Source: Amphiscolops sp. MND2022
Lineage: Eukaryota
Assembly (NCBI GenBank): GCA_964187785.1
Contig: OZ076409.1
Location: 40,488,001-40,552,000, forward strand
Direction: 5' to 3'
Length of the DNA stretch: 64,000 nt
Shown in pieces: positions 9,719 through 36,264 of this stretch (positions are counted from its first letter, which is position 1; every line of letters starts with the position of its first letter). The notes below the pieces were generated by a model that did no database searches, was not told the origin of the DNA, and saw nothing but the letters and a program-made list of their open reading frames with translations. The position numbers and the translations under genes are program-made.

Positions 9719-9929
9719 TGTTGTATTTCGAACTAGTTCTAAGAAAAGAATAAGGTTTCCTAAAATACTATATCTTTGTACTCGAGCGTATGCTATATAA
9801 CAATAACATAAAGTGATGTAGGAGTTTTACATCTAGTGTTTGTAAACAGTAGACAGGCCCTACCGGGTATGTCTATAACCGAAGTTCGGTACAGGTCAGT
9901 TCCTTGATTGACGGATGAACCGTATAACA
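9719..9929 (-). repeat. 3' LTR of element A (211 bp)
   Basis: Direct repeat of 15352-15552 with a 10-bp indel; adjacent PPT. Confidence 0.95.
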
Positions 9930-9952
9930 TTCCCCCTTCTCTCTCTGTGTTC

Positions 9953-10260
9953 CTCAGAGGCTGGATGATGTGCCGGGTCGCATCATGTTGTCCGACAGAA
10001 AGTCTTGAGGCTTTTGTATAGTTCCCGGTATCAGCTGGGATGTGCCTTTTGTTCGGTTCCAAATTTGACCTGTAACACAAACAAATTCGTCATACCCAAA
10101 AATTTCCTTTATAAGATATGCTACCGTATCTGTTCGGTCTATTAGTAATTCGGTTTGACCGTTTATGTTCACTTTCTGAATTCTCACCCTGTGGCATTTC
10201 TCCGTCTGTGTGAATTTGTATCACATCGTTTTCGGGATCTGTCCGTATCGGAATACACCG

Positions 10261-10306
<46 letters not shown>

Positions 10307-13300
10307 GTCGTATGTTTTCCCGGCTTCTTCCGGCGTTTCGTCTTCGTCATCGTCGTCGTCATCTTCGTCTTCCGTCTCAGTATCGGTTTTCTTTTTGTTT
10401 TGCACAATTCGCAATTTCCCGTTTAGGATGTCTCTCAAGATTCCATCCCACTTTCCGCATTTGCCGTCGAGTCCTCGTAGGCAATGTCGGTTCTTTGGTG
10501 TTATTTCGGCAGAAACTGTAGGTGCCGACTCTCTTCGGTATCTTTTCTCACTCTGAAAAAGTGGACCCGAAATAAATTTTCGATGTACTATTATCCCCGT
10601 ATCTGTTTTTACGGTGTTTTCAGTTCCGCTCATTGCGGTTTGAATTTTTGATTGAAATCTACCTTCTAAGGATTTTCGGTTGTGTCTTTTTTCTAAGAAT
10701 TTGAATGGATATCTAGCCGAGTTCTTTTTCGGTGATTTTGAGTCTGCAGCCAGTTGCGGTTCTTCGGTTTTTGTTCGAGCCATCACCACGTGGTTGGTGA
10801 TTTCCCCGTCAGCATCTCTTCCGACATATATCGAAATTTTTGGCCGATTTGGTGCTAAAATGGACAGTTCTGACCAATTTGACAGAAACGATTTCCCGTC
10901 TTTTACTATACTAGTTAGTTCTGTTCTCGGTGTTCAGTCCAAATGGTGTTTTCTTTAGTCCTGTGTGTATTGTGAACCGCATTACTCTTAATGCTCTGTT
11001 TACGCTTTCGGTTAAATTGTTACCGTCTTTTATTTTAGCTGGTTTGTGTTGCTCTTTCAACTGTTCCGTTTCCGGTATGCATTCGCGGTGGGCAATATTG
11101 CTTTTCTATTTTTCGAGATTTACAAAATTTTGTGTATAAGGTTGAAATAAATGCCCCCCCCCTTTATCGGATTTAATTTTTTCTGTAACACCGTATAAAT
11201 TAAACTGATATGATAGGAAACTTACAACTTCTTTTGTTTCCGGGGTTTTGCAAATTTTTGCTGTCGACCATTTGCTAAACCGATCTATTGCGATTAATAT
11301 TTGGGGTTCTTCGTTCAAGTTTTTATTATGAAATTTTTCGGTAAAAACTATTTGTAGTTCTTGTCCGGGTTCAGATAGTTTTTTTATTTTTCCGTACTGA
11401 TTTTTGGGAATTTAGTATTTATGGTTCTTACTTGTAGTTAAGCAAGTCGTGCAGTCTTTTACTTTTTGTTCGATGTCCTTCCGCAATTCCGGCCACCAGA
11501 AGATCTTTGCATCCGAAAACATTTTGGTTGTTCCGGAGTGACCGAAATGTAGAATTTCAATAAGTCTTCTTCGTAAGTCGATGGGAACGGCGATCTGGTC
11601 ATCTACGAAGACCAATCCCCACCGAATTGAAAGATTGTGGTATACCGGTCTAAAGCCTTCCGGTGTGGTGTCTCTTTCTTCTCTTCTCATGCTGGCTCGG
11701 ACTCGTGTCATTTCCGGATTAATTGCAGTTTTGGAGATAAGTGTTTTCAGATCAGCATGAGTTTAAAGTCCGCCTTCTTTATGGTCTCCTCCGTCATTTT
11801 CTTGTTTTCGGTGAGCCTTCCGACTATGTGGTTTTTTTGAATGTAGTAGGCTTCCTGCCTTCTGTGTGGTATTTTTAGAGGTCGACGATCGGCAAGTTGT
11901 CTCCCCGCAATATCACACTATCTTCTTCGGTATCTACCGAACCGTATTGAATTTTGTTCGGGCAGCAGTCCTCCTTCTTCCGGTGCTTCCGGCTCTTCTT
12001 CTTCTTCTTCGTCTTGTACTGGTCAGTATCCCCGCCAATTTGGTTTGTTCTTTGTGTGAGTTCGGCGTCTATCTCCGCAATTTCTTCTCGGCTTTTTTTA
12101 TTCGGTCTAGACGTTGTGAATATCATTCTCTGTGGTTGCGGGTCGTACCGTCTCCGCATTGTTCCGGGTCTAGTGAATATTTCTCTCCTTTACCAGTCTT
12201 TGCGTTTCGGGGCTTTTATTTTGTTTCCAGATGATTTCCATTATTTCCCGAGTTGCCCCACAGTGGTATAACATTTCTTGGTTCATTTTCTCGTCGGCGA
12301 TAATTTCTTCTTTTTTGTATTTGAACTTCTCTTTGTGGTGCTAATTTAAGACTGCCCGGATGTAGTGTTCTCGCTTTTGTTAGTTTTGTTCACGTGGCGT
12401 TTGTTCTGGAATGTTCTATTTTCGTGTGATTTGTCGTTCTTTTTCTCATTTCTGTTCTCGGATGGATTTTGTTTTGTCTCAGTGTCTTGTTTACTGTTTT
12501 CTGATTGGCTGTTGAACAGTGAACAATATTTTGCGTTCAATTTTGCGTGTTCGCTTAATACGTTAATCACATATTCTTCGTCGTATTTACCTTCTGTCGG
12601 TGCTCGTTCTGCCGGATTTCTACGTTCTACCGAGGTAGTCGATTTATTTTTAGTTTCTGCCGGCAATATGTTGAAATGCGATGTCGAAATGTGCTAGCCG
12701 ATTTATCCATCTAGTTATTCTTGCACCATATTGGTGGTTGCTTCGGCTTCGTTTTATTATTGGTTCTAGTGCTTAGTGGTCTGTATAAAAACGTTTATTT
12801 CTTCCCGTATAAAAATCGGTATTTTCCAATCTCCAGACTACTCCTAATAGTTCAAGTTCACCGATTGAATAGTTTTTTTCGGTATCGCTTAAATATCTGC
12901 TGCCGAATGCGATTGGTTTTATTTCTCCGTTGTCTTGTTTTTGCCAGAGTGTAATACCGATACCAGTTTTACTCGCATCTGTCGTTACCATGTTATGCTT
13001 GTCTTTTGCATAGTGTGATAGACATGGTTTCTCGGTCAGCATCTGTTTTTTTGTTTAAAATCTTTTTCTTAATCTTCTCCCCAAATCTATGGTTCATTCT
13101 TTTTCAACAGCTTTCTCAATCGGTCCGTCTTTTCCGATAGTTTCGGTAAGAATTTTGCAAGGTATTGTATTGCACCGCGAAATGATTTCAATTCTTTTGT
13201 ATTGTTCGGTGACTTCAACTTTTGTATCGCTTCGACTTTCTCTTCGTTCGGTTTTATTTCGTGTTCATCGATTCCATGTCCCAACCATTTTGTTTGTTTT

Positions 13301-15301
13301 AGGAAAAATTCGGATTTCCTTTCACTTGCTCGGTACTCGGTTTTTTCGAGTTTAGATAACACATCGAATAGTTTCTTCTCATGTTCCTGTTTACTTCCAC
13401 GTGTTACTACTTTGATGTCGTCTAGCCATGCCGGTGTGCTGTATTCCAGTGTTCGGTCAATTTTTTCTTGGAAGATTGTGGGGATGTCGGCAAGTCCGTA
13501 AAACCCTTTTTTAAATCTATAGTAGCCGCTCCGGTAATTGCAAATATGCATTGTCGGCTTGTTTCTTCAGATAATTTCATTTGTCCGTACGCGTAATCTA
13601 AATCGAGTTTTGAAATGAATAGGTGTAGTGTTCGGTCCCGTGTAATTTCCATCGATATCTGATTTAACATTTCTTCCATTATCGGCATGTGTGGTCTCCG
13701 TTTAATTCAACTGTCAATTAGTTTTCGGGAATCCAGTGCTTTTTTCACTGATTTGTCATTCTTTACCGTTATTACTACCGGTGATACGAAGCCGTCTTCA
13801 TCCACATTATTTACTTTGTCTAAGTGTCCGGCTTTTTTCAAGTTCTCGTCCTACATTTTTTTGGTAGGTGTAGCGGGATCGGTCTGGCTTTTTGTTTTAC
13901 CGGGTAGTTTCCGGGTTTCAATTGTATATTTATTTCAGTATCTTTTTTTGTCGGGTTCTTCTCGAACAGGTCCCTGAACTTGTTGATTAATTTCTCTTTT
14001 TCCGATTGGTTGAATTCAGCCAAATGTAATCTTCCGATTGTCAGTTTGAATTTTTTCATCCAGTCGAAGCCTAATAGCGGTGTTATGTCCGTTCTTTCGG
14101 TGATTAGTGTTTCCATCTTTCGTTTGTTATTTTCGTATTCCATGTCTACCGGTATCTTCCCCCGGAGTTTTACTACACTTTTATTTACATCTTGATATCG
14201 GTTTGTTACTTTCTGAATTTCGGTCTTCTTCATTATTTGTTCATCTAATGGCATTTTGGTTACTGGAGATCCGGTATCGATGATGAATTATTTTGGTGTT
14301 CCGTTGATTTTTATTTTTGCTGTGTAGTGTTTCTGTAGTGTTCCACGATGTTCTTTATTTCTTCTATGTGGTATATGCTCTCAACAGATTCGCTCCCTGA
14401 TTCGTTCGGCCCTGTTTCTTCCTCTTCGGTACGTTTTCTCACTGTTCGGTGATTCTTTGTTCTTTGTTTGCATGCCCGTGCGTAGTGTCCTTTCTTTCCG
14501 CAGTTATTGCAGTTTGAGTCTTGTGCTGCACACTTATGTTTTGGGCTCCAATTTGGTGCATTGCAGAATCTGCATGGTCGGTTCCTTGTTATTTTTGTTT
14601 TCGGTCTGGTTCCGAATTTGTCCATTCTCTGTTTTGGTACTGGTTTTGCTTTGATTATTTGTCTTTCTTTCGTTGTTTTTAAGGCTTCTGGTATTGTGTT
14701 TTTCTTGTTTTTCTTTTCGTAGGTTTTTGTTTGATCATTTCGATAGTTTTCTTCATCTCTAATGTTTTTTTTTCATTAGTTTGTCCCGTAACTTCTTGTC
14801 GGTGATGGCGGTCATGTATTTGGAAATTAATAGTTCTTCGGCAGAGATGGTACCAAAATTACATTCTTTTTCGATCTCGATTAATCGTCTCCAGAATTCG
14901 GGTGTTTCATTTTCCGATTGTTTTGCCCAAAACAAATCTCCTCTGTTGTTATATTTATATGTCGTTTTGGGACGTAGTGTTCGGTATATAACCGGATTAG
15001 ATCTTTATTTTTGATGCTGTCCGGTTCCGTTTTGTACTCGGCCCGGGTTATCTGGTATAGCGCTTCCGGTCCCACTCCCCAGATAAAGTCTTCTCGAATG
15101 TTTGCTTCTTTTTCGGCGGTCCATCCGGTTTCTGTGATATCTTCTCCTTTTACTAGCGGTGTGATATCGATCTTGTGTTCCCAGTTAGTAAACTGCCGGA
15201 ACCTCTCCAGCCATTGTCTCGGAGTAAATATTGGATTCCCGTGGAGCCAATATTTTCGATGCCTTAGCTTCTAGGTTCGGTACAATATTCTTTTCTGCCA
15301 T
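9953..15301 (-). pseudogene. gag-pol: gag-pol of element A, broken by many frameshifts and stops
   Basis: Zn knuckles CRFCNAPNWSPKHKC and CNNCGKKGHYARAC (14311-14625 ORF); protease DTGS at ~14267-14278; RT SKLDLDYAYGQ and WLDD; RNase H TTDAS and NYSIGELELL; integrase HFGHSG..CTTC, AIDRFSKW, KSDKG. Confidence 0.93.
10264..10301. repeat. (CT)19 microsatellite in the 3' end of element A pol
   Basis: Perfect dinucleotide run; produces the poly-ER and poly-SL ORF artefacts. Confidence 0.95.
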
Positions 15302-15351
15302 GGTTGCGGTTAAAATTTTCGGTTTGTTTCAAAATCTTGCTTACTGCGTCA

Positions 15352-15552
15352 TGTTGTTTTTCGAACTAGTTCTAAGAAAAGAATAAGGTTTTCTGAAATA
15401 CTATATCTTTGTACTCAAGCGTATGCTAGATAACAATAACATAAAGTGATGTAGGAATTTTACATTTAGTGTTTGTAAACAGTAGACAGGTATGTCTATA
15501 ACCGAAGTTCGGTAGAGGTCAGTTTCTCGATTGACGGATGAACTGTATAACA
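15352..15552 (-). repeat. 5' LTR of element A (201 bp)
   Basis: Direct repeat of 9719-9929, flanked internally by a mutated tRNA-Ser-like PBS and externally by TSD TCATA. Confidence 0.95.
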
Positions 15553-16642
15553 TCATAATTGAAACATTTTTTAAGTTACACTGGTTTTTCACTTTGAATT
15601 TGTCTCCTAATTCCGTTCCATGTTAGTATTGTATTTTAATGCGTTCAGGCCTTGCACTTTTGGTAGTAAAAGATGCACGCAAGCAAACAAGACACCAAAT
15701 AAACAGCGGGGAGGTCTCCGCTCGAAACATTTTGGTAAATATTATAAGGGCTCGAGCGTATCCAAAAATGAGCTTGACAAACAAATTCGATATTTTTGAA
15801 ATTTTTGGTATTTTCCGTCCTTCCTATTCTTTTTATGGAAGAAAAATGTCAATTTTTTTGCTTTAAGTATTCGCTAATTTGGTATGAGTCTCATACTTCA
15901 ACACTGACGAAACTTATACCCACCCAAAAATCCAAATTGAGTACAAACTGACAAAAAGCGGTTAAAAATTGAGACATTCGACACAATTTAGTTCTTTTTA
16001 CACCCTTTCATGTGTTTTATTGTAGTATTTTTTATATAGGAGGTTTCCGAGCAATCAATTTTTTTGCTGTTGAACTCTGTGGCTGTTCATACGGTAATTT
16101 TCCAAAAATTAGAAACTTTTGCATGAAGCATTCGAAAACCGAGTAGAAAGAAGAAAAACCTATTTGATATATTCAGCGTGGCGTCATAATCCCCAATGTG
16201 GCTTTGCTGTGTCGGCGCCGTTTCCTGTTACTAAATCCCACAGCACGCAACAGTATTATATTAGCAGTCAATTGACCAAGATGTGGTCGACGTTTAGCGG
16301 TAATCAAGAAATGACTTGCTCGATTCCACGAAGTTCGACTGCTAATAGTTGCTTTTCTTTTTTGTTTTCTACGCCAAAAGCATTCTTTTCTCATGACCAT
16401 ACATACCACCAAACTAGGGATGAAAAAATTGCTCAAAACCCAACAAGTTAGGTTGAGAGATAATCGAACCGTCGTCCGTACCAAGACAGACGGAGTTCTA
16501 TAATCACTACACAATGATCAACAAAAACTTTTAAAAAATGACTTTTTTGGTTTATTGTTGTAAGGACCGACTAGCTTCTCCTAGATCCGGACGTAACAGT
16601 GCCGGAAAGCAGGAGTTGCTCCTAGTTAAACGTAAAAATGAA

Positions 16643-17148
16643 CAAGACGGGAACGTCCCAAGTCGGCGCCATATCTTAGGCTCAAAAATATTTAAGGAAC
16701 AACTATTGGAAAAATTTGGAAAAATTTTTTTTTTCAAAAAAAATTTTTTTGATTTTTTTTTCGAAAAAAAGTATTTTTTAGGTCGCACAATGCCGAAAAA
16801 CTCAAAAAGAGGCCATTCAGGCTCATTCAACGTTTTCTACAAACCGAAAACTTCAAAAAAATTCAAGGGGGTACCCTTCGATAAATTTCGAAAATTTTCG
16901 AGAAAAAGTCGCACAGTGCCGAAAAAAATCCAAAGGGGGGACCCTTTGGGCACGTCCGGTTGTGTATGTTTCCTTGAAAAAGTAAAAACTGAAAGGGGGA
17001 CCCTTTGGAGTAAAGTTTGCCTTCTGCGCAGAATTGCAGAATTGTAAGAAAAGTGGACCACTCAGAGTGAGATTGTCAACTGAAAAAAACAAAAAAAAAA
17101 ACTACTCACTGTAAGAGTCGGGCACTTTTCTCTAGAAAAGCGCCGACT
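16643..17148 (-). mobile_element. Helentron-associated non-autonomous element (HINE/DINE-1-like) inserted in the leader of element B
   Basis: 5' subterminal inverted repeat (subTIR) AGTCGGCGC with a nearby inverted copy (17116-17125); 3' subTIR at 16661-16670 followed by hairpin GGGA-CGT-TCCC (16649-16659); inserted in a T-run; empty site AAAAATGAAAAACATCCCT seen at ~31928-31946. Confidence 0.8.
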
Positions 17149-17155
17149 AAAAACA

Positions 17156-17172
17156 TCCCTCTGTGGTCGCCA
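17156..17172 (-). promoter_or_regulatory. PBS, tRNA-Arg(UCG)-like, 16 nt from the LTR end
   Basis: TGGCGACCACAGAGGGA is complementary to a tRNA 3' end TCCCTCTGTGGTCGCCA, resembling metazoan tRNA-Arg(UCG) ...TCCCTTCGTGGTCGCCA; also at 45696-45712 and, damaged, at 31942-31957. Confidence 0.75.
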
Positions 17173-17188
17173 AAAAAACTATTCCAGA

Positions 17189-17896
17189 TGTAGTGACCGG
17201 CTAGCGACGCGCATCTAGGAGAAGGGACAAGCCCCAGGGTGCTTAAACAGGAGACCGTTGTCTTACTATATCTCTAGACATTAGTTTTTGTTCCCAAAAT
17301 AGTCTCCCAGGGGGACTTTTCTTTCGTCACAGGAGGCTCCTCTAGTTAGAGCTCCTAGGCGACATGCCGGCACTCTCAATGTCCGGACACGCCCCACAAG
17401 CCTGTAAAAACAAATCCTAAGGTTTCTAGCGCATTCTCGCGCATCTTACATACTTCCGATGTCCAAAAACAGTATTTAACTGAAATACATTATATTTGGG
17501 AAACAAGAATTAAGATGAAGACATAGTAGGTCAAACATTATCTAAACTCTCAGCAAATAGTAAAATGTACGGGGATAAGCCCCTACAACATTACAGTTCA
17601 GGGTGACGGTCGGTTTAGCTTCTAGCATGTTTCATCTTTGGGCATTTTCCAGAGAGATGGCAAATTCCGTCAGTTTTGGTGTGTTTTGATATCATTTCAC
17701 TCTTCCTTGCGTTTGTCTTCATCTTCTCTGAACTTCTTTTTCTATTGTCGTTCTTTTTTGCTCTGTCTCCGCGTGGCTTCTTTTTTTTGTTCATCTTCCC
17801 TCATCTGCTAGGTCGGCCATCTTTTTTGTACAAGTTTGATATCGCACACTTCGAATTTTTCATCGAAATTTCGTCATTCCAGTGGCTGACGTTACA
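17189..17896 (-). repeat. Internal (shared) LTR of element B, 708 bp
   Basis: TG...CA ends; homologous to 31957-32491 and to the element D LTRs; PPT GGGGAGGA at 17897-17904. Confidence 0.92.
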
Positions 17897-18438
17897 TCCT
17901 CCCCGGGCCGTAGTTTGTCGTCCTCGGCAAACGAGGGGATGCTTGGACCCAGAGGGTATCGGCGACATTGAAGGCCACTTTAGCATCGGGACTGGGTTTC
18001 ATCAGTATAGTTTATTGTATTCTTAACCTCTCTCTTTTTTGTTTCAAGGCTAATTAATCCAAAAGGCACCTGATAAAAATGGACACACGGCAAACAGTTC
18101 AAGAATTTTACTACAGTTTTCTAAGTCTAAGTTAAAATCTTTCTTCTAAAATGGGCCTCTGCGCGGCCAGAGTAATACAACAGTTTGGTCTTGGTAACAG
18201 TATTGAATTGTTAAATTTCAAACTGAAGCGGAAGGGCACCGACCGGGGACCCCCCACTGGGCATAAGCAAACTAAATATTGCATCGATCAGTTTAAAGTA
18301 TAACACAAAATATGATGTATAGCACGAGACAAGCAAACACAGTTTTAATCGTAGCACGATTTTTCATCAGCACCTTTTGGTCAACCGAAATTGGTTACAG
18401 TACCTTGGTAAGTAGTTTCAGGGGTCTTTCGTTTGCCT

Positions 18439-21400
18439 TCATTCTTCTGGCTGGTCCGTAGGCAAATCTGGCATTGAAGTAGTAGCCGCTGGCTCTAAAT
18501 TTGTGACAGGGTCCGCTACCATGATGGGAGACGGATTGGGGTCGTCGATTGTTAGGAGGTTGTTGAGTTCTGACTCGATGACGGCAGGCTCCATCTGGGA
18601 TATGCCCGTGTCGGGTTCGTCTTGGGCAGGCGTGGCGGCACCGGACAGGGTAAAATTAAAATTATCATCAGTCATACGCTCATCAGGCGGCATGTCGGTG
18701 GATAAATTCTCCTGATGACCTTCTGTTTGGGTATCAGCTTCATCGGGCAGATTCCTTTCTGGGGGTAGCGAGTGAGAACTTCCAGAGGCAGTTGCACTTA
18801 TTTCGCCAGTCGTATTACTTACACTTCCCTGGGGGAGTTCAGGTATGCCGTCGGCGAGCTCTTGATGCCCATATTGACCGAATAGGCTCTTGAAGGTCTG
18901 GATTCCTCGAACATAGTCTTCGCTCACAAACTGTCTTCGCTCCCTTTGCCTGCTGTGCAATTCGAGGAATATTTCCATTGCGACTCGCGGGTTGTTAGGG
19001 ACCTCTGCACCAATTGGCAGCGTCTTTCTGGCTAGTTCCCGCCCAATCGAGGGCACTGTGATTTTCAAGCGTTGAAAGACTTGATGAACTGCAAAGTTTA
19101 CTAGTTCTGGGTGTGGCCAACATGTGGTTGCGTCCAGTATGCGTGCAGTATGGACACAGGGCTCTGCTCGATTACAGTACATTCTTGACGTCTCACATAC
19201 TTACGGGTAGTGGGGCCCACTGGGCGCTTCACTCCGTTTTCTCCCACCCAATCTTTGCACGATCGTAGCTAAGATTCGCAGGACTACTGGCACATCCCAT
19301 TCTGCAAAGGGATCTACCGCACCCGTGTGCGGATCTATGGTGTTGTGCAACCATGCCACAGGGTAGAATTCTATGGACATGGTGAGGGCGCACCGCGCAC
19401 GTGCCCGGATTATTGCCGCGAAATTGTGTTCCACCTGTTTCCGGTCCTTAATCACCGTATAAGCCATGGGGGGTCTTTATGTTTTTCACAGCAGTTTGGT
19501 AAGCAGGACCCCGCTAGGATCCATTAGTGTTTACAAAGTGCAAGATGGAGGAAAGCGGGGCATGCGCAGCCACTCTTAAGGTTTGTGTGGGGTACCTTAG
19601 AGCCATCACGGCGCCGAAGATTGCCCAAATTATGGGGGAGATTAGGGGGATGATGTCTTCAGTCTCTACTAGCATAAGAGTAGCCACTTGGGAGGGGAAC
19701 AAAAAACCAGGGAGCTGCGTGGGCTCCCTGTTGGCTGCAGGGTTTTAATCCAGAGGATGCATGATTCCAGCAGTGTTAACCCACGTGGAATAGATCCACA
19801 GCAGGAGGTTCTCAATGTTGAGTTCTAGCTGTGTATTCAATTGTCGAGGACCCGCAGGGTCCAAAGCATTCAAGATCGCGTACAGCCAGTTGTTCTGATT
19901 CCGTGCGAACACCAGGAAGCTAAAGCGGCACACACTTCCCTTGTCGAACAAGTTTTTGTAGGAGTCCATTGGGCCCTCGGTATACTGTCTGCAGGCCAAC
20001 GGCCATTAGGCACGCCAGGATCTCACTGATTGTGGATCTCTCCATGGCCTCAACGTACAAGCGTAGTCGCTGTTCGTCCAAATTATATTCCGGCTGCACA
20101 AAGTTGGGAAACTAGAATGGAGAGATATTATATAGAAGCACTGGGAAGGATATACCTAGCCGCTCTACGACTTGACTCAGTGGCTCAATTAGCAGCTGAT
20201 GCCCCGTCTGATGCGTCAATTTTGGCACCTTTTCGTTCTGACGAGTCAGGTCTTGAGCTAGCACCATTGATAGTGCCAGCGTGGGAAACCCGATGTAAGC
20301 CTGTAGGGCTTTTGACACTTCTGCTAAGAATGCAGGTAGGATGCTTGGCATGGGCGCCAGGTGGTCGCGCTAATCGTCAGATTTGGGACACTAGGTAAAA
20401 ACTCAAAGTCCTTGCGTACCAGCTGCCTCTAGTACCAGGTGTAGGAATTGTTGTATGGGTCTCGGTAGAAACATGTAGCCTGGGGGAGACATGAACACAG
20501 TTCCGGTGGTGGATTCTTTGCTCTTCCTTGTCCTAGTGATGTGCGACATCGCCTCCACGTAGGCTGTGACTTCATCCGTGACGAATCCTTCAGTGAATCT
20601 GGGGAGTTCCAGTTCGAAGAATTTCAGTGTCCCCCGCAGAGCGAGGTGATCAAGTACATTTGAATAGACTAGTATGGGAGGAAGAGGTATTGTTTCTGCT
20701 GCCGCTGGCGCGAAGATTTTGTCAGTAACCTCTGCCATCTCGCTGAGCGAGGTGCAGGGCATATTCATCACTCCGACGTCCATCAAAATATTGTTGGTGT
20801 TATATAACGACTTCATGGTTGAGTCGACAAAGAATGCTATTCTCGTCTTCTGCAATAAGTTTTTCCCCATGGGTAGTAAAGTAATGGGGTCTCTCGCATA
20901 GTTTTTGGTTTTCAGACGTTCTTCGTCATACCGGCCTGGTCGCTGGCGGTTTAAACAGTTTGTAGGGTAGGTTGCAGAGGCTGTAGATACATGGAGTTAT
21001 CCCTCTCCAACTCTCTTCATAAGCGGTTGAAGCATGGGGAGCATCCATCGGTCGTGAATGTTGGTTTCTTCACCGGACGGGTGTAGATTACTCCTATGGT
21101 TGCTTTTTCGATCGTTTTCAGAGTGGCGGGGTCTTCTTACTGGTTGCAACTTCGAATTTCTGTCGGAAGGGATCTGCTTCTTCAGTTGTGGCGGGAACCT
21201 CACGCTGGAGACGTACTGCGTCTTTCGCCGTTATATCTAACTGTTGTTTCTCAGCGGAAGTGAGACTTTCCCGCGTCATTCTTTGTCTTCTGGCTGCCGG
21301 CTGTGTGGGTGAGGGAGTTGGGACTTTTCTATTGTTACTCGAGCTCGACTGTTCTCGACCCGGCCTCTTGCCCGTTTACTCGCATTGACTTTGTCTCGCA

Positions 21401-22166
21401 AGTCTATGGGGGCGTTGGCAGCTTTGTTCTCTGCTTTTTGTTGTTGGCGCTGGCGTTCTTGTAGTTGCGGGTCCTTTTGGAAGCCTTCAAGACGGCTGGG
21501 CTCGCTCCTTGAGGTTTCGTCGCATGTTTCTCGCCTTGTAAGGTATTATTAGCGATTGCATTCACCTGCAACCCTCCCCCCTGGAAGGTGGAAGGAGGCA
21601 TAAAACTGGTGGACGACTGAGTAAGTAATCTGATGCCCTCGAATGCCAAAGGCATGGGGGCGTAAGAATTTGTGGCGGTATTGTTGGCAGGGTGCAGCTA
21701 AACTGGGTTAGCTCTAATGGGGGAAGGGAGCCAATGCTGGGAGGTTGCTTGGTTGCGGGGGAATTCGAAGTGATAGTTCTTGGTCCCTGGGAGGCCTAGT
21801 AGGCTCTCCAAATACTAGATGGGCCCTTGGGTCAATGAGGTCATGGGTCAAGTCATACTCATGCCAAGTGCCATCACGGAAGCTGGCGAAGCGCTCTAGT
21901 GACCCGATACTGCTAGTGATGGTAATGAGAACGTCTGGATGAGTTGCTTGTAACTGTATTTGGGCAATGATCATGGCAAAGCCAGCGATCATCGTAGGGG
22001 TAGCCCCATTTTGGAGAGTTTGTTTAACCAGGGCGAGCTGGTCAACTCGACCACCGATTTCGCTTACTGGCGGGATAGTGCTGGCAGATGTTTGTTCAGG
22101 AGTTGGGTGCCGAGAACTTAGCTGGTGTGATGGTGCTGGCATTCGGTTGCGTGATGAAGAGTCCAT
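18439..22166 (-). pseudogene. Extra 3' ORF of element B (~1200 codons, disrupted): low-complexity N-terminus, SGNH/GDSL-hydrolase-like domain (~20330-20870), further unknown domain(s) and acidic tail
   Basis: Chain of same-strand ORF fragments (21714-22166, 21404-21655, 20997-21203, 20403-20870, 19745-19999, 19514-19702, 19201-19467, 18439-19182); motifs IAFFVDST, MPCTSLSEM, ILVYSNVLDHL, TVFMSPPG; no obvious env-like TM anchor. Confidence 0.6.
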
Positions 22167-22569
22167 CTTTGATAAATGGAATAGCACCGAAGATAATTGA
22201 GAGGATAAAGGCAGGGTTGAATGATGGTTAATGGGAATATCAGGGATATCGTGCCGCATGGGAAGGCCGCGCAGAGGCGAGGCGAAGCAACAGGACAAAA
22301 CTGAAAGGCAGGATGCAATTGAGATTAAAAACGGTTGAGAACCGATTGCAATAAAATAAACAAAATGACACACAAGACGTAAGACTAGTAGATACATGTT
22401 GTTATGATGAGCAGCTTTTTCATAACGATAGATTGCATTTAAAAATTTAGAACACGTTCTTTTGTTAAAAGCAAAGAGAAGGAAAGAAAAAGGGAAAATG
22501 AAGCTGGCCTTTGAATCCCAGGGGTAGCTACTTATTGGGCGCCTATGATGGTTGATGTTATCGATGCTA

Positions 22570-23005
22570 TGGAGACATATATTCTGCCATGGATAATTAA
22601 TTCTAGGTTCTGATCTATGAAGTGATCACGTAACGTAGCGTACCAAGCCGGTAACAAATTGATCGACCGTTCGGGATCATTAATGGGTAAGTGGATTCGC
22701 GTGATTCAAATCTGGTGAAGCTGGTGCGTCAAATGGGTGAGACATGCGTGTAAGATTTCGTGTAGCAGTGGGTGTTTATTGGAAGCTCTGGTGCACAAAA
22801 GGAACATTTCGTTGCCCCAGGGTGCAATTGGTTAGTTTACCAGGCGCACTGCCGTGCCCACCGCAGGCCTTAACTGGAATATGTTTTCCTATCCATATTC
22901 TCAAATAACGCAGCGAGCGGTTGCCGCGTAAGACATTAGATCTGCAGGACAACATAACACTACCGTTCGAGGGGCCTGCAATAAGTCCGTTGCAGCGTAG
23001 GTTAT
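22570..23005 (-). pseudogene. Macro domain (TARG1/OARD1/Poa1p-like) at the 3' end of element B pol
   Basis: Read through four in-frame stops in one frame: ITYAATDLLQAPRTVVLCCPADLMSYAATARCVI*EYG*ENIFQLRPAVGTAVRL...MFLLCTRASNKHPLLHEILHACLTHLTHQLHQI*ITRIHLP...WYATLRDHFIDQNLELIIH, colinear with TARG1 ITYVKGDLF...HCISED...IYYLITK...LQKSLE...LSMP...IKITVY. Confidence 0.72.
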
Positions 23006-24779
23006 CCATGGCAGGTTATTTGGCACGGTTTTCAGTTGCGTTATTAGCCATTTGCCCGTGGCATTGCTATGATAGTCGATTGGTTGAGACGCCGAATGAT
23101 CGAAGATTGCTCTGCGATCTTGCCATACCGTGCGACGCAAGGGTCTATCGCCCATGTTGGTGCAAGACCAATCATGCACTACGGAGAGTGCTTCGAGCAC
23201 GGTTATCGGTTTTTCGAGGGTGTAAGTCTGCTGGTCCAGGACATGTATCTCGGCTTGTCGGCAAAAAATGATTGCTATTAGTTGAAGCCAATGTTGACTC
23301 AAGAACTTTCCGCGGTAGAAGTCTGCTAGATAGAAGCAGAGGGTGTTTTCAGCCTCCACCACAGTACGTACGCTTTCCAGACTTATTAGCAACGTAATGG
23401 GGGAATAGGGAACACGGGCGTTGTTTGGTCCAGGAAGGTGACCAATAGCCAACAACCTTGTGTAGGCTGGTATATGTCACCCATATGCGGAGGGGAAGCA
23501 ACATGGTATCTTTCCCATAGCTCATGTGAGGTTATGCAGCGAATCATATCGGTCTTTTCTCGCTCAGCGTTCACTTTGCCGAATTTTATAGATGGTGGCA
23601 AAAGGGAGTATGACGGCGGATAGTGTGAATTCTAGACCGCGTCGGTCATGCTGTGTCCATTCTCTGAAACGGTGATTAGGGCAGTCGGAGATGGAAGTGT
23701 CGTGCATTGTTTTTAGCGTGACTTCTAGTGGTGGTACCACTCCTAGTTCTACGCTTGTGTACGTTTTCTCTAAGTGACGATAATGTGCTTCACCGTTGGA
23801 GAAGGCTCAAGTTCTTGTCGTTGGGACCGGAATTCCATGCTACGGGTGTTCTGGTGCGCGTGCTATCAGGAGTTCACGGGTGGGGATGGCGGCTCGACGG
23901 GCCAATCGATGGTCCGGTGGTTCGCTTGCGGTTAGCTGCACGCAACTACAATTGTGGGAACCACAGGTTCCACACCGATATCGCGGTGCCCTATTTACTC
24001 TTAGCTGTTAGCGTGGAGCTTGTGAGGAGGTACTTTCTTCGATTCCAAGTCTATCCGGTGACAGGTTTGTTGAGATTTCTGGTATGGTCATGGATCTGCC
24101 TTGGGTTCGGGGAGGAGCTCTAGTGCTGACCCTGGTTCGTGGGCTTCTTCTATGCCGGGCAGTTAGGCCTCTGGAAGATGCCTTAGTCTTGCTCGAGGAT
24201 GTTGTGTGCTCCCTTCTACAAATGGGTGGCCTGCCTCGAGGTCTTCCCCTTCTGTTCGAGGTGATTGGCTGTGCAGGAAGTTGGTTTGGACTCGGATCTT
24301 GAGTTTCGCACTCCCTCTAGGTATTCTGTGGCTGCTCTATTGCAATTAAGGGGTCCCAGTCTGTGAATAGAACAAAAGGAAATTGCTCAGAGTATCAGTG
24401 AGGGATGGATTGGACAAGAGTGGGGCAGATGTTCCAGAGGGTGATGGCATTAGGTTTTTTGTTGGTTTCTCTGGATGAATCTCTTCTTGGTCGGAGAACA
24501 ATGGCTCTAGGCCATCCAATTCACGGAACATCGCCTGCGGGGATGGTTCCACAATTGGTGGTTCAATTGCTTCTTGTTGTAACTCCCAGTCTGGGGGGTA
24601 TCCAAAGTGACTAAATCGCCGTCGAGGTATCCCACGGTCAAGAGCTGCCTGCGTGCGGGATTGGATGGTTCGCGGTGGAACCGGTCTGGTTGGTTCTGAC
24701 GCCTCTGGTAGCTGCTCTGGTAAGAAAAATCTCGGCAAATATCCGAAGTTATCTCTTCATGACTCTCTTGTACGTATGG

Positions 24780-25892
24780 GTCAGCAATGATGGCTACATT
24801 CTGGTCTAGCCCAAAGAGCTGATGCGTTGCCCAATTCCAAGGGGCAGGTACACGCTTCTTCAATCTCTCGAGGTGGAGCTTTTGACCCGTGTTTAGCACA
24901 TAGAGGCGTCCATCTTGTAGCACATCGGTTATCTTGTGTGGGCGACGCCATGCACGAATCAGTTTGCTGGTGCAGCCTTTGGGTATAATGTGACAAAACA
25001 CCCAGACTGCATCGCCAATGGCATGTGTGCTTTAGCTTTGAGGTGGCGGTCAAACTTCAGTTTCTGCCTCAATTGCGCTTGGTGAGTATTTCTGCGAATT
25101 AGTTCGTGATTTTCCTGTTGTCTTGCCAATAGGTGTTCTGCAAACTCTTCCTTGGAATCAAAACCGCGCGCTGCGAACTCAGGGTAGATGAATGATAAAG
25201 GAATCGATTTCTCTGCCCCATGTTGGAGCATGAAGGATGAAAACCCTGTAGTTGCTTGCCTGGTTTAGTTGTATGCGCCTAGGACTCCATCAAAGTGCTG
25301 ATCCCAATCTTGCATCCTGCGCGACGTATAGACTCGGAGTACGGTTATCAACGTTCTGTTTTGTCTCTCCACGAGTCCCTTGCCTCTGGTGTGAGCAGTG
25401 GTAGACGTCACTTTAGTCACCTGCGACGCTTTCATGAGTTCCTGAGCTATTTCCGCGGTGAAGTTCGTTGCATTATCGGATTGCATTCGGGCTGGAGTGC
25501 CGTGTCTGGCAAACAATTTCTTTAGGATGATTTTCGCTGTCGTCTGCGCATCGTGTTCGTCATGGGCGCAGGGGATGGCTTCCGCAAACTTCGTCAAATG
25601 GTCTATAATGACCAAGAGTCCTGTGTTGCTTGATTCAGTCTTGCAGAGTTTCAGGTGGTTGAACTGCACCAGGTCGTTGAAGTTGCTACTGTTTATGCTT
25701 TGCAGTGGATAAGAGGGGTTTCCGGCGGGCTGCTTTGTTTGTTGACATGTTAAGCAGTGCTTAATATGATTCACCACATCTCGTTTGATGCCTGGCAAGG
25801 TGTGTCGCTCCTGTATCCCTGCTAACACTTTCCCCACGCCCTGATGTCCCAACTGTGCTCTGTACAGGATTTCGTGTTGATATAGTTGCGGC
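24780..25892 (-). pseudogene. pol: Integrase of element B (Zn-binding, DDE core, C-terminal SH3/GPY-like part)
   Basis: GHQGVGK..HIKHCLTCQ; IIDHLTKFAEA; MQSDNATNF; GLVERQNRTL; AWRRPHKITDVL..KLHLERLK; frameshifted. Confidence 0.92.
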
Positions 25893-26182
25893 ATGAAGTT
25901 TGTTTTTAGCGTATGGCCACCCAGTTGGAAACTCATGTTTTCATATATGCCAATGGTGTTAATTGTCTTGCTGGTGGCGGCGTACAATTATATGTCGTAT
26001 GGCATTAAACTCAGGGCATGGGCAGACGCGATCTTCTGGTAAGCGTTGAGTGAGAGGATGGAGACACCGGAGCTAGTGTCTATCATCCCGTACAAAGAAA
26101 TCGGTTCTTGAAGGGTGCTGCCAAAGGCAACCACCAAGGAGGCCCTTTCGTCTATCCGAGCTTCCCCTTGCACGTCTTGCAC
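25893..26182 (-). pseudogene. pol: Aspartic protease of element B, joined directly to integrase
   Basis: YGMIDTSSGVSILS (DTG-like) continuing as YAATSKTINTIG..LGGHTLKTNF straight into the integrase Zn-binding region. Confidence 0.8.
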
Positions 26183-26399
26183 ACCAATTGTTTTAACATC
26201 GCAACTCCTGGCGGCCTAGGTACAACCCTTGTGGGAAGTATCCTTCTAGGACTATTATTGCGTCAAATTTCATGTCGACACCGTCTACGTTGATAGCGAC
26301 GGGACCGGAGAAATCGTTTTAACCTTATGAACGGATGCCGGTTTGGTCTCGTCTTCCCTAGTGAAATGTGGGAGTGGCCGAGGGGCAATGGCATACTTG

Positions 26400-29234
26400 G
26401 TGTTTCTACACAATTCCTCCTTCCGTTGGGTTAGCGTCAGCGCAGGGCGCAGTTTTTGCTCGCCGCCGCCAGTCAAAAGTAGCAAGTGTATGGAAATGAG
26501 GGTTTCGGTGCAGTTGAGAGCGGGTGCTTTGATTGGCCTCCGCTACCGAAATCACTCGAACCTGATCGTCTTGTCCCACGCCATCGAATCGGTTGGTCTG
26601 TGGGGCATACCACGCTGCTCTAATTTGCTCTTCCTGTCTTATGTTTTCCGGAGCTGTACATTCTGATGCCGAATGCTCAGAGCGGCCACATTTGATGCAA
26701 AAGGCCACGGTTCCGTGCACTGGTAGCGATGCCGGGAAAACCTCGTGATTTATTCCATGCGGCAGTGACGGGCAAGTCCATCCTCCGGATGGGTTCGTGT
26801 GACAGAAATTTACTTGATGTTGCAGGGGTTTTCGAGCGCGATCTTTTGGCGGGCAATCGATTACGAAGTGCAGTGGGTCGCCGCAGTTGAAACATGCTCT
26901 CTGAGGTTGCTGTCGATATGCTGCTGGTTGCTGAGGGGGTGCTTGTTGTAGGTTTCGCGCTGGCGGGGGAGCTGCCGGGTATTGGTTCGGTACTTGGTTG
27001 GGCTGTTGGGGCGCAGGAGGAACCATTGGATAACTGTCGAAACGAGAGGAGCCACGCATGCGCAGATACTGCTGGACGGTGAAGCGAAAAGCCTCCACTG
27101 TGTGTGGTGCTTCCACATATTGTTCTGGCGCGTACATGAGCGCAAGATTGCGTTTCAGCTCGAAATTGCGCACTCCTTCTATAAATCGTTGCATGATTTC
27201 GTATCGCCGAACTGATACTTCCTCGTTGGGGAAGCCTTGGCTGCGCAAGTTTTCGAGGGCATCAAAATACTGCATTTAGTCCTCTTCACTATTCTGGCTG
27301 CGAGTTCGAATTTGTTGTCGAAAATGGATCATACTAGACACGATTCCGAATCAGCGCGCTAAGAGCGCAAAGGCCTTTTCGTCAGTGTCTCTTTCGGCCT
27401 CGGATTTGTTAGTGATGTAATCTCTTGCCCCGTGCTCTAAATGTCCAAGCTTTATCGTGGGGGGTAGCTTTGGCGTGCGCTTTTTCCAGATGGCGTTTCA
27501 TCAACATCATCCATCTATCGGCATTAGCATCTTTTGTTCCTCAGTATTTAGTCGGTTTATTCTTGGACTCCTTGACTGCTAGTAGCGTTTCTAAGCCCCT
27601 TGACATGGTTGTTGATATTGCTTCTGCTATTGCTTTTCGCTGTCTGGTCCTCGGTGTCGGGAGGTACCAACTGTGGTGGCTTGACTTGCTCGACGCTAGG
27701 CTGCGCAATTTTCCGGTAGGTGGCTTGTGCGGGCGGCGAAGGTGCACTGGTGGACGGCATATTGGCTTGATTAAGTGGTAGGGTTGCCACTGGCGCCACC
27801 TGTGTATGTGCTACCGCTGTTTGCGACACTATAGCTTTCACCCCCAGTGTCAAGTCTTTCATTGTTGTCATCAGGTCCACCATGCGTATGTTGGAATCAG
27901 TGTCTCGACGCTGCATCATGTCCGACATTAATTTCATGCTTTAGTGGGCTTGGCGGTCTTTTTCTTCTCATTACCGCAGACGTTTCGGCCAACCGAGAGT
28001 CAGTCAATTTCTGTCGTTGTTTGATTAGGTCATTCAGGGAGGCCATCATGGCCATGATGGATGCTTCGAATCGTCCTTGATGTTGTCGCCCTTCTACTTG
28101 TATTTCCAGGAGCCCTTTTCTCATTTCATCTTTGTCTCTCATGACAACGTCAGCTCGCATTACATGCTCGCAATTTTCTCGCGCCAGTCGTTAGTATACT
28201 TGTGAAAGTTGAGCCAAGCTGCTCCTGAAGTCCTCCCTAGCCGCTTGCGTTTTTTCGAACCTTGGTGACAATTGAATCTGGAACGGTCTCAGCGATAGCT
28301 TTAGAGCTTGGTGTATAGGTTAATCGCTCTGCATTGCTAGGATTGAAACTGGGGCCCGTCGTTGGCGGCGTCCTGAATGTATACCGCAACTGGTTTTTTT
28401 CCACCGGAGTTGGTGGGTTTCCGACCGGCTTGCTCAACGCTTTGGTCGGCGCTCCTGGTTGCATGTACCCACTCAAAGAAGGAGTTTCGTTCTTCGTTAT
28501 TGATCAATGCATGCGAACCCTGGGGGTCCCTGTAGATTTCTGGTGTTTGGGGGTCGCTATTGGAGTTGCGACGTCGCACCCTTGTGTTACTGCTTCTTTG
28601 CTGGTGCTTGGTTCGCATGTCGGCCTCTTTTTGGAGTTTGGCCAGCCATCCGAACTGTAGTCAGTGACTTCCAGAGGAGGCCACGCATTACTTTGCATTG
28701 TAATTTCAGCACCATCCGCTGGACTGGTACTATCTGGGAAGCTCGCGATGAATTGGGCTGGCTTCCTGCAGCTACCATCTCCATGTTTTGTTCTGAACTG
28801 GGAATATAGTCAGACATGAGTTCTGAAAACATGTTCATGGTCATGGTGCTCATTGCATCTTCAGCGCTTGCATTCACTTCGCCCAACGTTTTGATCTCGC
28901 TAGCGAATGGATTGGTTTTGTAGGGTCCGTTGGACTCCCAGGACGCTTCGCTCGAGGGATTCATGGATTCCCTTTCTGTCCAGTCCATTTTGGTTGCGAG
29001 TTTGTCACTAACGATATTTCTGGATGATAATGTTTAGCCTGCTCCCTTTTCCTCGCGAAATGGGGAGTGGGAATGGAAGGTGGAGTGGATTGGATCTGGG
29101 ATGTAGGCTGTTTGAGGAAGTTTTATCATCTGGGAGTACGGCGTAGTAATAGGGTTATACGTTTTCGATGATGTATCTCTCGTGGGTTGCATCGAACTAT
29201 AAGAGGGCTTCGTTAGCACTGGGGTGGATGCCAC
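26400..29234 (-). pseudogene. gag: gag of element B with long N-terminal extension and two CCHC zinc knuckles
   Basis: YFDALENLRSQGFP..QRFIEGVRN capsid-like segment; CFNCGDPLHFVIDC and CIKCGRSEHSASEC; upstream same-strand ORF fragments 27557-29234. Confidence 0.85.
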
Positions 29235-29539
29235 GTGCCCTATTTACTAACATAAAATGTGGTTCGCCTTTGGGGATGGGCGGACTATAAAACGGACCAG
29301 ACACAAAAATTTTTCTTGAAGATAATTACACTAAACTACTAACTAGTTGTAACGTTAGGTTTTGATCCAGCCGCTGTCTGTGCGACGGGCTTTAACAAAA
29401 AGTTTTAATACTGTCTGCTGACTTTGCAGTATTCTTTATGTAACGAGAGTTTTGTGAAGGGGGGAGTATTCCTCTTTTCTCGTTATTTTCTTTCAAACAG
29501 GGTAGCACGAGTTAGAGAAGTAGAAAAAGGGGTTTGGTG

Positions 29540-31941
29540 TGGACCTTAGGGTGAGTATGGACAAAGGCATTGAGTTTTAAACCGATTTACTGACTGCAGG
29601 CTACAAGGTAGGCGAATTAACGGTGCTCTAACACTGTAGGCGACACTGGTTTACTGTTTTGCTTCCTATTTAGACGCTCTGCGTTTGAAGTCTAAACCTT
29701 GAAGGTGTCAATAAAAGCACTGCAATACCCTTTGGGTACATGGGGCACTAATTCAGTGCCTTCATAACAAACAGTTTACACTTGGATGACTTTGGGGGTG
29801 GTTTGGAAGCAAATCTTTATTTTCGGTTTTTCGCATTCATGTCTCGTAGACATGTTTCTCAGAGACCCGAGATCTTAGGGTCGGTTTGTCACTAATCAAA
29901 TTGATTCGTTCGTCAGGACGTGCGAAACATGCCTGGTATGCTGAAGAGGTCGTTTGGGTCCTCACTGGCACGTATACTGACAAAACTGTACGATTTGTCC
30001 TACAAAATTGCAAAATCAACATTTTTTCGTCAACAGGCAACTCCGGGGAAGCAGAAAAAAATATAGCGCTGCTAGCGACCTGAAAATTTCACACCGCTTC
30101 TTAGACGAGCTATATCGTGGAAATTAACCTCCGATTCCGTCAAAATTGACTCTGTGGTTGTTATGGTCACCTAATAATGTCCACTGAAAAATTGACAATG
30201 TCGCGAAATTCACAAAAGTTAGTCAAACTTGCTTTCTAGGCGTCCTAGCTACCTGAAATTTTGTCTGCGAGCGTAAATTATGCCCACGTAACAGAAAAAC
30301 TGGGCAGCGAGGGGCCTGGGTCAATACCTGGCGATATTTGCACAATTCCACTGGCTGCTCAAATAGCACAAATCGTCGGGATCTAGTGCCGTACGTAATG
30401 AAACGCAAGAATTTTAGTGCTGAGATACCTGCAAGGTATTGCACTATGCTCAACTAAAATTCGATTTTTTTTGCAGTTTTGTGCATTTTTTGAGCAAAAC
30501 TGCGGCTAAGATTTTTCCACGGGTACTGACAGTAGCGCCATCAGAATCACGCTGTTAGCGTAACTTTTTTGCGCTCTACACGATGGTGCAACCTGTTTTT
30601 GGCTTTTCTTGATAGGAGAGATTTCGACTCAATGAAAAAACGTGGTTGCTGAATTCCCAAAATGTCACAAAAATAGCACGTTTTTGGCTATTCCTCAGCA
30701 ACCACTGCTCGGAATCACTCGCAGTTTTCTGCGTTAGCAATGTAACACTCTATGTTAACAGAAAGTAGGCAAGCGAAACCTTGTAGGCTTCAAACAAGGT
30801 ATCTCAAAAACTTTTCAAATTGCACTTTTCACACTACCGGAATTGTGCTGAAAATACGTATTTTCGCAAAGAACTTGCTGTTTTTCCTGTTCGCCGAAGT
30901 TCCTTATGGTTTTATCAGTGGTGTAAGAATGTGTAATAACTTTGTTCAGGGGACTGGGGTATTTTCAGTAGTTGGTTTAGTTTCAAAAACACACAGGCTT
31001 ATGAGGGTCCTCTACTCTATTCGTAACAAAAGAAAAGGGATTGATAAAGTTTCAATTTTTGTAGGGGAATGCTAAATCCGTCTTGGTAGTAGTGTTTCGT
31101 ACTGCCAAGCTCGACAAAAAACTTTTTGGGCTGCTCAAAAGGCTTGGGGAGTGATGCCCAAGGCTTCGCCCCGCCAAATTTGGTCAAAATGACCAAATTC
31201 GACGATTTTCCAATAAAAATTGCTAAACTTTTCGTGTTTTTTCCACATCTAGCCCAACAAGGTTTTGTTCCTTACCTAGTAGGTCTGTTGGAACGTTTTT
31301 CTAGTATTCTCACTGGCCGTTTTCAGTTCTATAAAGTTATGACTGTCAAAATTGGAAGTATTGAAATTTGAGCTATTTATGGTGTTATTTTCGAGGTTTT
31401 TGCGCTCAACTTTTTAAATAACTTGTCTGAACACCCACTGGGTATTTTTTCTAGTTAGTTCAGGTGGGAATAGGCCTGGGAATATGCTTTTTGGTCTAGA
31501 AATCGAGAAAATTGGGGATGTAACCCGATTGACATGGGGGTACTGCAATCACGGGGGTTTTGGATGTGTAGTCGCGTAGGACGTCACGTCTTCGTGTCAG
31601 CTAGCGTGAACCTTCACTGTACGTCCTCTCCGTCCCCATACATTGCAAATTTGCTGAAATGAGGCTAAAAACTCTTTGAAATCAGTTCCGGGTAGGCCGG
31701 ATTAACTGTTTCAACAGGTATAGTCAAAATACAAAGTGTATACTGTCTGAAACCGTCTATTTCTGGCTCTAGACCTCGGAAACATGCAGAAAACGCTAGA
31801 AAAATACTAGTACAAAGCCCAAAGGGCTAGAAAAAGATTATAAAAACAATCTAGGACCCTCTGAAAAGCGTCTCCTAGATCCGGACGTAACAGTGCCGGA
31901 AAGCAGGAGTTGCTCCTAGTTAAACGTAAAAATGAAAAACA
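29540..31941 (-). other. ~2.4-kb non-coding 5' leader of element B, homologous to the interior of element D
   Basis: Colinear reverse-complement similarity to 45713-48190 (e.g. TTTTAGTTGAGCATAGTGCAATACCT, CCCTAAGATCTCGGGTCTCTGA); no long ORF. Confidence 0.85.
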
Positions 31942-31956
31942 TCCCTCTGTGATCGC

Positions 31957-32491
31957 CTTTTCTTTCGTCACAGGAGGCTTCTCTAGTTAGAGCTCCGAGG
32001 CGACGTGCCGGCACTCTTGAAGTCCGGACACGCCCCACAAGCCTGTAAAAACAAATCCTAAGGTTTCTAGCGTATTCCCGCGCCTCCTACATACTTCCGA
32101 GGTCCAAAAAGAAAATTTAGCTGACATACATTATATTTGGGAAAGAAAATTCGATGAAGATCTAGTAAATCAAACATTATCTAAACGCTCAGCAAATAGT
32201 AATAAAGCACGGGGATAAGCCCCTACAACATTACAGTTTGGGGTGATGGTCGGTTTAGCTTCTGGCATGTTTCATCTTTGGGCATTTTCCCAGAGAGATG
32301 GCACATTCCGTCAGTTTTGGGGTGTTTTGATACCTTTTTACTCTTCCTTGCGTTTGTCTTCATCTTCTCTGACCTTCTTTTTCTCTTGTCGTTCTTTTTT
32401 TGCTCTGTCTCCGCGTGGCTTCTTTTTTTGTTGATTTTCCCGCACCTGCTAGGTCGGCCATCTTCTTTGTACAATTTTGATATCGCACACA
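31957..32491 (-). repeat. 5' LTR of element B with deletions near both ends
   Basis: Aligns to 17316-17850; ~145 bp (U5 end plus spacer) missing before the PBS; ~45 bp missing near the outer end, at an AC microhomology. Confidence 0.88.
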
Positions 32492-35854: not shown

Positions 35855-36250
35855 CGAATATAACGTTTTCAAAGTTCGCATATAACGGTTTCAAAGTTCG
35901 CATCTAACGTTTACAAAGTTCGGATATAACGTTTTCAAAATTCGGATATAACGTTTTCAAAGTTCGAATTAAGCGTTTGTAAAAGTCGGATATAACGACT
36001 AAAGTTCGGATATAAAGCATTGAGAGTTAGGATATAACGTTTTCAAAATTGGGATGTAACGTTTTTAAAGTTCGGATATAAGGTTTTAAAAGTTCGGATA
36101 TAACGTTTGCAAAATTCGAATATAACGTTTTCAAGGTTCGGAAATAATGTTTTGAAGTTCGGATATCACGTTTTGGAAGTTCGGATATACCGTTTTCAGA
36201 GTTGAAATATAACGTTTTAAAAGATCGGATACAACGTTTCAAAGTTCATA
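35855..36250. repeat. 22-bp minisatellite, consensus AAGTTCGGATATAACGTTTTCA, ~18 diverged units
   Basis: Head-to-tail units without spacers. Confidence 0.92.
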
Positions 36251-36264
36251 TGTAATTTCAGCTT

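Follow-up and report, generated by a model that had tools for sequence, protein, structure and literature searches.

What do two accessory proteins do for a retrotransposon when each resembles a known enzyme and the usual catalytic residues have been replaced in both? The question is raised by a 64,000-nucleotide stretch of the genome of Amphiscolops sp. MND2022 (assembly GCA_964187785.1, contig OZ076409.1, positions 40,488,001 to 40,552,000; hereafter the window, in whose numbering coordinates are given), where positions 18439-24780 are the decayed 3' half of a Gypsy-type long terminal repeat (LTR) element on the minus strand. Behind its integrase the pol frame of this family runs on into a pair of macrodomains, a fold known for handling ADP-ribose, and a second long open reading frame (ORF2) with an SGNH-like domain follows. 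The pol tail and ORF2 are clearly kept by purifying selection in two deep lineages (I and II), and from the residues replaced in both proteins we think it fairly probable that they act as binding modules, the macrodomain pair on the integrase and ORF2 on the RNA or the particle of the element.

A decayed copy and its open-frame relatives

The preliminary description of this locus, drawn from the window alone, had reported same-strand coding remnants between the integrase and the polypurine tract of a Gypsy element, and had called the copy dead; all of this is borne out. In tblastn comparisons of open-frame relatives with the window, the pol tail matches at 24726-22541 (residues ~2529-3260 of a 3262-residue frame) and ORF2 at 22166-18451 (residues 1-1355 of 1358), with E-values from 1e-66 to 0 and the matches distributed over several frames. 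The long tail and ORF2 segments of this copy contain 11-15 stops, together with frameshifts, and the reverse transcriptase (RT) and RNase H are deleted, gag-pol residue 1208 joining residue 2138 at ~25893. Pfam identifies Integrase_H2C2 and rve at 25894-24780, and gag knuckles and a protease are also recognisable. The two LTRs, at 17189-17896 and, in part, at 31957-32490, are 91% identical across 537 bp. The features of the copy, all on the minus strand, are:

17155..17172, minus: primer-binding site for host tRNA-Arg(TCG), complementary to its 3' end, 16 nt past the end of the left LTR
17189..17896, minus: LTR of 708 bp (TGTAACG...ACTACA), from sequence, in the 3' position
17897..17904, minus: polypurine tract GGGGAGGA abutting the LTR; the same tract precedes the 3' LTR in lineage I copies
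18439..22166, minus: ORF2 remnant with stops and frameshifts (1,360-1,440 residues in open-frame relatives)
20290..20860, minus: SGNH-like domain of ORF2, from fold and residue comparison
20348-20365, minus: position of the SGNH block-V histidine, here arginine, from sequence
20646-20666, minus: SGNH block III, altered, from sequence
20817-20834, minus: SGNH block-I serine, retained, from sequence
22301..22303, minus: putative splice-acceptor-like site upstream of where ORF2 starts, a CAG preceded by a run of pyrimidines, predicted from sequence
22570..23010, minus: macrodomain 2, predicted TARG1/DarG class, glycine loops absent, from fold and profile tests
22769-22798, minus: arginine at the catalytic-lysine position of macrodomain 2, from alignment
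23230..23560, minus: macrodomain 1, more diverged and with a shortened start, from its profile-profile match to macrodomain 2; compact in the model
23942..23974, minus: conserved CxxCGxxxCxC motif, possibly a zinc site, from sequence
24000..24780, minus: low-complexity linker behind the integrase, from sequence, with an RGRP repeat that we take to resemble an AT-hook
24780..25894, minus: integrase with zinc-binding, core and C-terminal parts, from Pfam and tblastn
25893..28922, minus: remnants of gag (CCHC knuckles) and protease, from Pfam and tblastn
28923..32490, minus: long 5' leader and partial 5' LTR (31957-32490), from sequence comparison

At 16577-17188 the left LTR is adjoined by the primer site and by part of the 5' leader, and within this interval, which an insertion of ~490 bp with short inverted ends divides, 16577-16645 repeats 31875-31937. 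To judge from this arrangement, a primer site beyond an LTR in the 3' position marks the copy as a tandem or rearranged one.

Function had been thought judgeable only from a family consensus; that restriction falls away, since natural copies have open frames. A search of the host genome (1.07 Gb) returned 807 candidates for the tail by DNA and 4,293 by protein, and 4,975 for ORF2, all of them candidates and not copy numbers. Among the matches scored, 104 of 113 for the tail are without a stop, and 19 of the 113 lie within frames of >3,000 residues; for ORF2, 17 of 33 are without a stop. Open-frame copies have one gag-pol frame of ~3,250 residues and a second frame of 1,360-1,440 residues. In the former, Pfam recovers the order protease-RT-RNaseH-integrase in a single frame, with gag preceding, which supports the assignment to Gypsy. 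Young elements measure ~19 kb and their LTR pairs are 99.3-100% identical (8/8); therefore the family moved recently. Lineage II of the same genome has the same plan, its RT-RNase H being 72-74% and its ORF2 ~30% identical.

Ratios of nonsynonymous to synonymous substitution (dN/dS) were computed pairwise between natural copies, without ancestral reconstruction. Across five unsaturated pairs they are 0.01-0.03 for the integrase, 0.06-0.09 for macrodomain 1, 0.12-0.24 for macrodomain 2 and 0.24-0.31 for the linker. Segments of ORF2 give 0.02-0.32 (two informative pairs), with 0.08 for the SGNH part, and lineage II gives 0.04-0.13 where measurable; most values for the tail and ORF2 lie at 0.04-0.25. 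The N-terminal domain of ORF2, ~80 residues long and at ~21810-22075 in the window, is conserved in both lineages, with a ratio of 0.06 in lineage II. The check on open frames and dN/dS that had been proposed for the locus thus returned frames open in the family and ratios far below 1.

The macrodomain pair and ORF2

No Pfam family matches the tail or ORF2, in the window copy and the open-frame copies alike, and so the names macrodomain and SGNH rest on folds and profiles. One or more macro domains had been suspected in the pol tail from the start, and two are present. The structural model of the tail has a mean pLDDT of 48.5 and contains two compact units near 70. Its best Foldseek match is TARG1 (E 4.6e-8), and VIA gives Z 15.7 for TARG1 (root-mean-square deviation 3.0, 136 residues aligned) and 14.9 for DarG; many viral macrodomains are found among the fold matches, ranking after these two. 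A profile of macrodomain 2 (7 rows) scores 37.1 bits on the intact TARG1-type domain of an unrelated element in the same genome (best of 100 shuffles, 4.2) and near zero on the MacroD-like and macroH2A-like domains of the host. As judged by fold and profile, macrodomain 2 belongs to the TARG1/ALC1 class of macrodomains and is of TARG1/DarG type, and macrodomain 1 is, as far as profiles indicate, a diverged copy of it: deep profile-profile comparison of the two gives a probability of 93-95% and a score of 46-50, with <=21 for 60 column shuffles. A shallow comparison of the pair is weak (probability 4.8%), and a search with the macrodomain 1 profile did not exceed shuffles. A sequence search of solved structures returned no macro or SGNH match; matches to PPR repeats in that search were rejected as low-score artefacts. 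An Atlas query with the tail gave leads all below 0.9, including one cluster with Macro in 14% of its members.

The motifs D-[IF]-L, C/A-P-A-D and T/I-R are conserved in these macrodomains. The position of the catalytic lysine was assigned via the intact in-genome TARG1-type domain, and presumably corresponds to the TARG1 numbering. Of 10 clade rows, 9 have arginine there; the remaining one, from a sister lineage, has lysine, as do both intact reference rows. The GCGLD loop is replaced in every row that spans it, and neither glycine-rich loop survives in lineages I and II. In sister lineages other states occur: one has an apparently single macrodomain, with the lysine kept in one protein, and another has a tandem pair with the glycine loop partly kept. 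According to PMC9411070, TARG1 requires Lys84 and Asp125, and DarG requires Lys80. Macrodomain 2 thus has the same fold and class as human TARG1/C6orf130 and bacterial DarG (PDB 4j5q, 2lgr, 5m3i) but differs from them in the replaced Lys/Asp dyad and glycine loops, and in the second, shortened copy in front of it.

The unrelated element belongs to a Gypsy-type family of the host genome with an RT only ~24% identical and a dUTPase-like domain, whose pol ends in an intact TARG1-type macrodomain (Pfam Macro). It further encodes an antisense ORF of 330-380 residues and an env-like ORF of 783 residues with hydrophobic stretches at the N- and C-terminus and a basic cleavage-like motif. Its target duplication is 5 bp and its primer site lies directly at the LTR (1/1). 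This is apparently a second, separate macrodomain capture, and it would be a better candidate for counter-defence than the family in the window.

From N- to C-terminus, ORF2 consists of the small conserved domain, a low-complexity stretch, the SGNH-like domain, a helical region, a C-terminal domain and an acidic tail. The model of its core is poor (mean pLDDT 35); 24 of 50 VIA rows, at residues ~82-267, are GDSL/SGNH-type esterases or putative hydrolases. Of the SGNH catalytic set, the serine alone is kept in the lineages of the window; the block II glycine, the block III GxN and the block V histidine are replaced, the histidine having given way to arginine in 86 of 89 stored proteins matched by pattern. 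In sister lineages, proteins from deletion copies in which pol is fused to the ORF2 region hold an intact SGNH unit (GDS, G, GTND, DGIH; Pfam PF13472, E 8.8e-7) and, after it, another SGNH-like unit, which has GxND. On these GxND-bearing units the ORF2 profile reaches 21.4 and 15.4 bits, and 0 of 300 shuffles attain either value. The ORF2 domain is likely a disarmed SGNH domain. In two of the sister-lineage deletion copies, P0397 and P0399, a disarmed unit comes after the intact SGNH unit, and up to ~3,000 members make up the clusters of their relatives.

Hallmarks of env are missing from 3 of 3 ORF2 copies: there is no N-terminal hydrophobic window >1.6 and no R-x-K/R-R site, and only 7-8 cysteines are present. 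Searches of Pfam, PDB sequences and folds gave no match to an env or fusion protein. ORF2 nonetheless occupies the position of env, behind a run of T and an AG that are visible by eye in 10 of 10 spacers, in both lineages; the ORF3s of LTR elements are typically expressed from spliced RNA (PMC5408684). The proposal of a large non-env ORF with an SGNH-like domain stands in its first part and is held more loosely in its second, where the fold evidence is weak, and the label "virus-like" has lost ground, as ORF2 is without env hallmarks and there is no sign of cell-to-cell spread.

Target duplications, primer site and relatives

The usual traits of Ty3/Gypsy elements are present, namely LTRs with TG...CA ends, a tRNA primer site and a polypurine tract. 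Target-site duplications of Ty3/Gypsy elements are usually 4-6 bp, a typical and not a defining length. In the present family 17 of 17 insertions that could be read, from both lineages, show 3 bp, and none reaches 4 bp; eight of the insertions were paired by script, three came from end lists and six were added further, two pairs with damaged ends being excluded. A 3-bp match is expected by chance in about 1 in 50-64 per pair. To our knowledge, a 3-bp stagger is shorter than any norm for LTR integrases. A primer site usually lies within a few bases of the LTR; in this clade it matches tRNA-Arg(TCG) and is set back from the end of the LTR by 15-16 nt, in lineage I as in lineage II, with a variant site in some subfamilies. 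The preliminary description had noticed neither the 3-bp duplication nor the displaced primer site. The primer-site pattern has 255 matches in the genome, and ARAGORN finds mostly tRNA-Arg at 3 of 3 loci scanned. A tandem array of tRNA-Arg genes with ~174-bp spacing lies on sequence C9 of the host genome, at ~57.54-57.58 Mb.

A quick RT tree of 34 rows, from which one candidate that lacked an RT match had been left out and which includes no named Gypsy-clade reference RTs, unites 26 of the 34 in one clade (SH-aLRT 100). Named proteins of fish, frog and pseudoscorpion fall outside it, the nearest named ones being 35-41% identical. Other organisms are the likely source of the proteins with ~57% RT identity and of some ORF2 homologues, because their best-scored matches to the host genome reach only 25-37%. 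A library-wide profile search returned 438 ORF2 homologues, nearly all short among the 150 listed. One homologue, P0237, lies on an 816-bp contig labelled as a Bacteroidota metagenome-assembled genome and is likely animal DNA in a bacterial bin.

Elsewhere in the window, 45269-48061 and 49250-50032 hold another copy of the LTR and, in inverted orientation, LTR and 5'-leader pieces that are 73-84% identical and belong to a related subfamily. Other LTR-type elements and a ~5.4-kb tandem duplication occupy 9718-15553, 37212-43105 and 51322-64000, with weakly related pol frames at 12668-13527 and 61954-63993. At 35788-36256 and 1799-1917 there are tandem repeats, of ~22 nt and 30 nt.

Roles of the accessory proteins and meaning of the clade

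That the tail and ORF2 might be neutral passengers or misread non-coding DNA, as the lack of a Pfam match and a window copy full of stops could suggest, is refuted by the selection results, and we give it almost no chance: many copies have open frames with low dN/dS, and the plan is kept even where ORF2s are only ~30% identical. The choice accordingly lies among functions. The preliminary description had seen a counter-defence device in the macro domain, and macrodomains working as ADP-ribose erasers or binders against a host PARP-type defence, by an altered mechanism, would suit the TARG1/DarG-class fold, the viral macrodomains among the fold matches, and the strong selection with conservation of the three motifs. 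ADP-ribosylation does participate in the silencing of mammalian L1 (PMC4695847), the hydrolase SCO6735 is active without the TARG1 dyad (PMC9411070), and one sister-lineage row keeps the lysine. We consider this role unlikely all the same: lineages I and II have other residues in place of the lysine and of both glycine-rich loops, macrodomain 1 is shortened, and the separate in-genome element displays what an intact captured domain looks like. Because the TARG1 lysine, the glycine loops and the SGNH histidine are replaced, a counter-defence enzyme is doubtful and binding modules are likelier, and the claim of ADP-ribose removal is weakened by replacements that run across the lineage. For ORF2, the position of env, the acceptor-like site and a hydrophobic 19-residue window (mean 2.1-2.2, in 3/3 copies) could point to a non-canonical env substitute that binds membranes and moves particles across them or between cells; SGNH domains of retroelements bind phospholipids (PMC3905857) and have been proposed to aid membrane passage (PMC5408684). 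Such a role strikes us as quite improbable, since neither an N-terminal hydrophobic window, nor a furin motif, nor a fusion-protein match is found, cysteines are few, and the hydrophobic segment contains prolines and sits in the helical region.

For two binding modules, the following course may be envisaged. An ancestor would have acquired two working enzymes, a TARG1-type hydrolase and an SGNH esterase; by duplication or decay each would have given rise to a form without catalysis, which selection retained. The macrodomain pair would stay on the integrase as a tether or scaffold, likely helping it to engage a chromosomal target. Chromoviruses carry a reader-type domain, the chromodomain, at the integrase C-terminus; in the present family the macrodomain pair, as a predicted tether, stands in its place. 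ORF2 would be made from a spliced RNA, and its product would likely bind the RNA or the particle of the element. Several observations weigh against this proposal. Loss of residues does not prove inactivity, because SCO6735 hydrolyses without the dyad (PMC9411070), and the arginine at the lysine position is itself conserved; moreover, the loss of both glycine loops would argue against ADP-ribose binding as well. On the side of ORF2, the best VIA Z on the SGNH-like domain, 7.4, is within the unspecific range of the tool, Foldseek with the poor model gave nothing at E<=0.001, the ORF2 profile scores the intact SGNH unit at -1.9 bits (183 shuffles as high), the active ZfL2-1 esterase binds lipids and not RNA (PMC3905857), and a strict acceptor pattern flags the site in only 4 of 10 spacers. 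As to selection, one near-identical pair gives 0-1.2, with 0.3-1.2 in several segments, deep pairs are saturated, and the pairs were picked among open-frame copies, which biases the values down a little.

Each module has its precedent. The Vesta LTR retrotransposons of bdelloid rotifers are Gypsy-type too, and behind pol they have a third ORF that is not env and has an SGNH fold, as ORF2 is predicted to have; however, their ORF3s keep the catalytic residues and give amplicons of ~1.3 kb, whereas ORF2 is ~4.1-4.3 kb with the catalytic set replaced, and the macrodomains that end pol in the present family have no counterpart in the available text of the Vesta paper, where "macro" is absent (PMC5408684). 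Epsilon-like endogenous retroviruses of fish share a captured macrodomain (Basta et al. 2009, cited in PMC4977317), but these are retroviruses with macro in an extra ORF, while here a tandem pair of TARG1 class with the lysine replaced is fused behind a Gypsy integrase. Oskar OSK, a catalysis-free SGNH fold that binds RNA (PMC5785220), and the esterase of ZfL2-1 ORF1p, an active SGNH domain that binds lipids (PMC3905857), are analogies to ORF2 with no sequence relation shown. The word "macro" is also absent from the available text of a review of giant transposons (PMC6431247). Neither this architecture nor a 3-bp duplication in a Gypsy element was found in the literature searched, with Repbase, Dfam, GyDB, supplements and most subscription papers outside the search; the modules each have precedent, in the rotifer GDSL ORF3 and the fish retroviral macrodomains, and it is their combination and the 3-bp duplication that were not found.

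We tentatively propose, as a possibility that falls somewhat short of an even chance, that the clade is an undescribed Gypsy group dominating some invertebrate genomes, with a 3-bp stagger and a displaced primer site, in which a TARG1 hydrolase became an integrase-tethering reader and an SGNH esterase an RNA- or particle-binding protein, active, intermediate and disarmed states being distributed over sister lineages. Annotation tools by default expect duplications of 4-6 bp, and may overlook this family, of which the genome has thousands of candidate copies, or place its boundaries wrongly. Shorter integrase staggers accompany sharper bending of the target, and one of 3 bp would widen the range of geometries known for LTR integrases. 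Within one group of retrotransposons, the clade would offer for each of two folds a set of natural states that leads from working enzyme to disarmed, making the role of captured macrodomains and esterases in retroelements testable on isolated domains.

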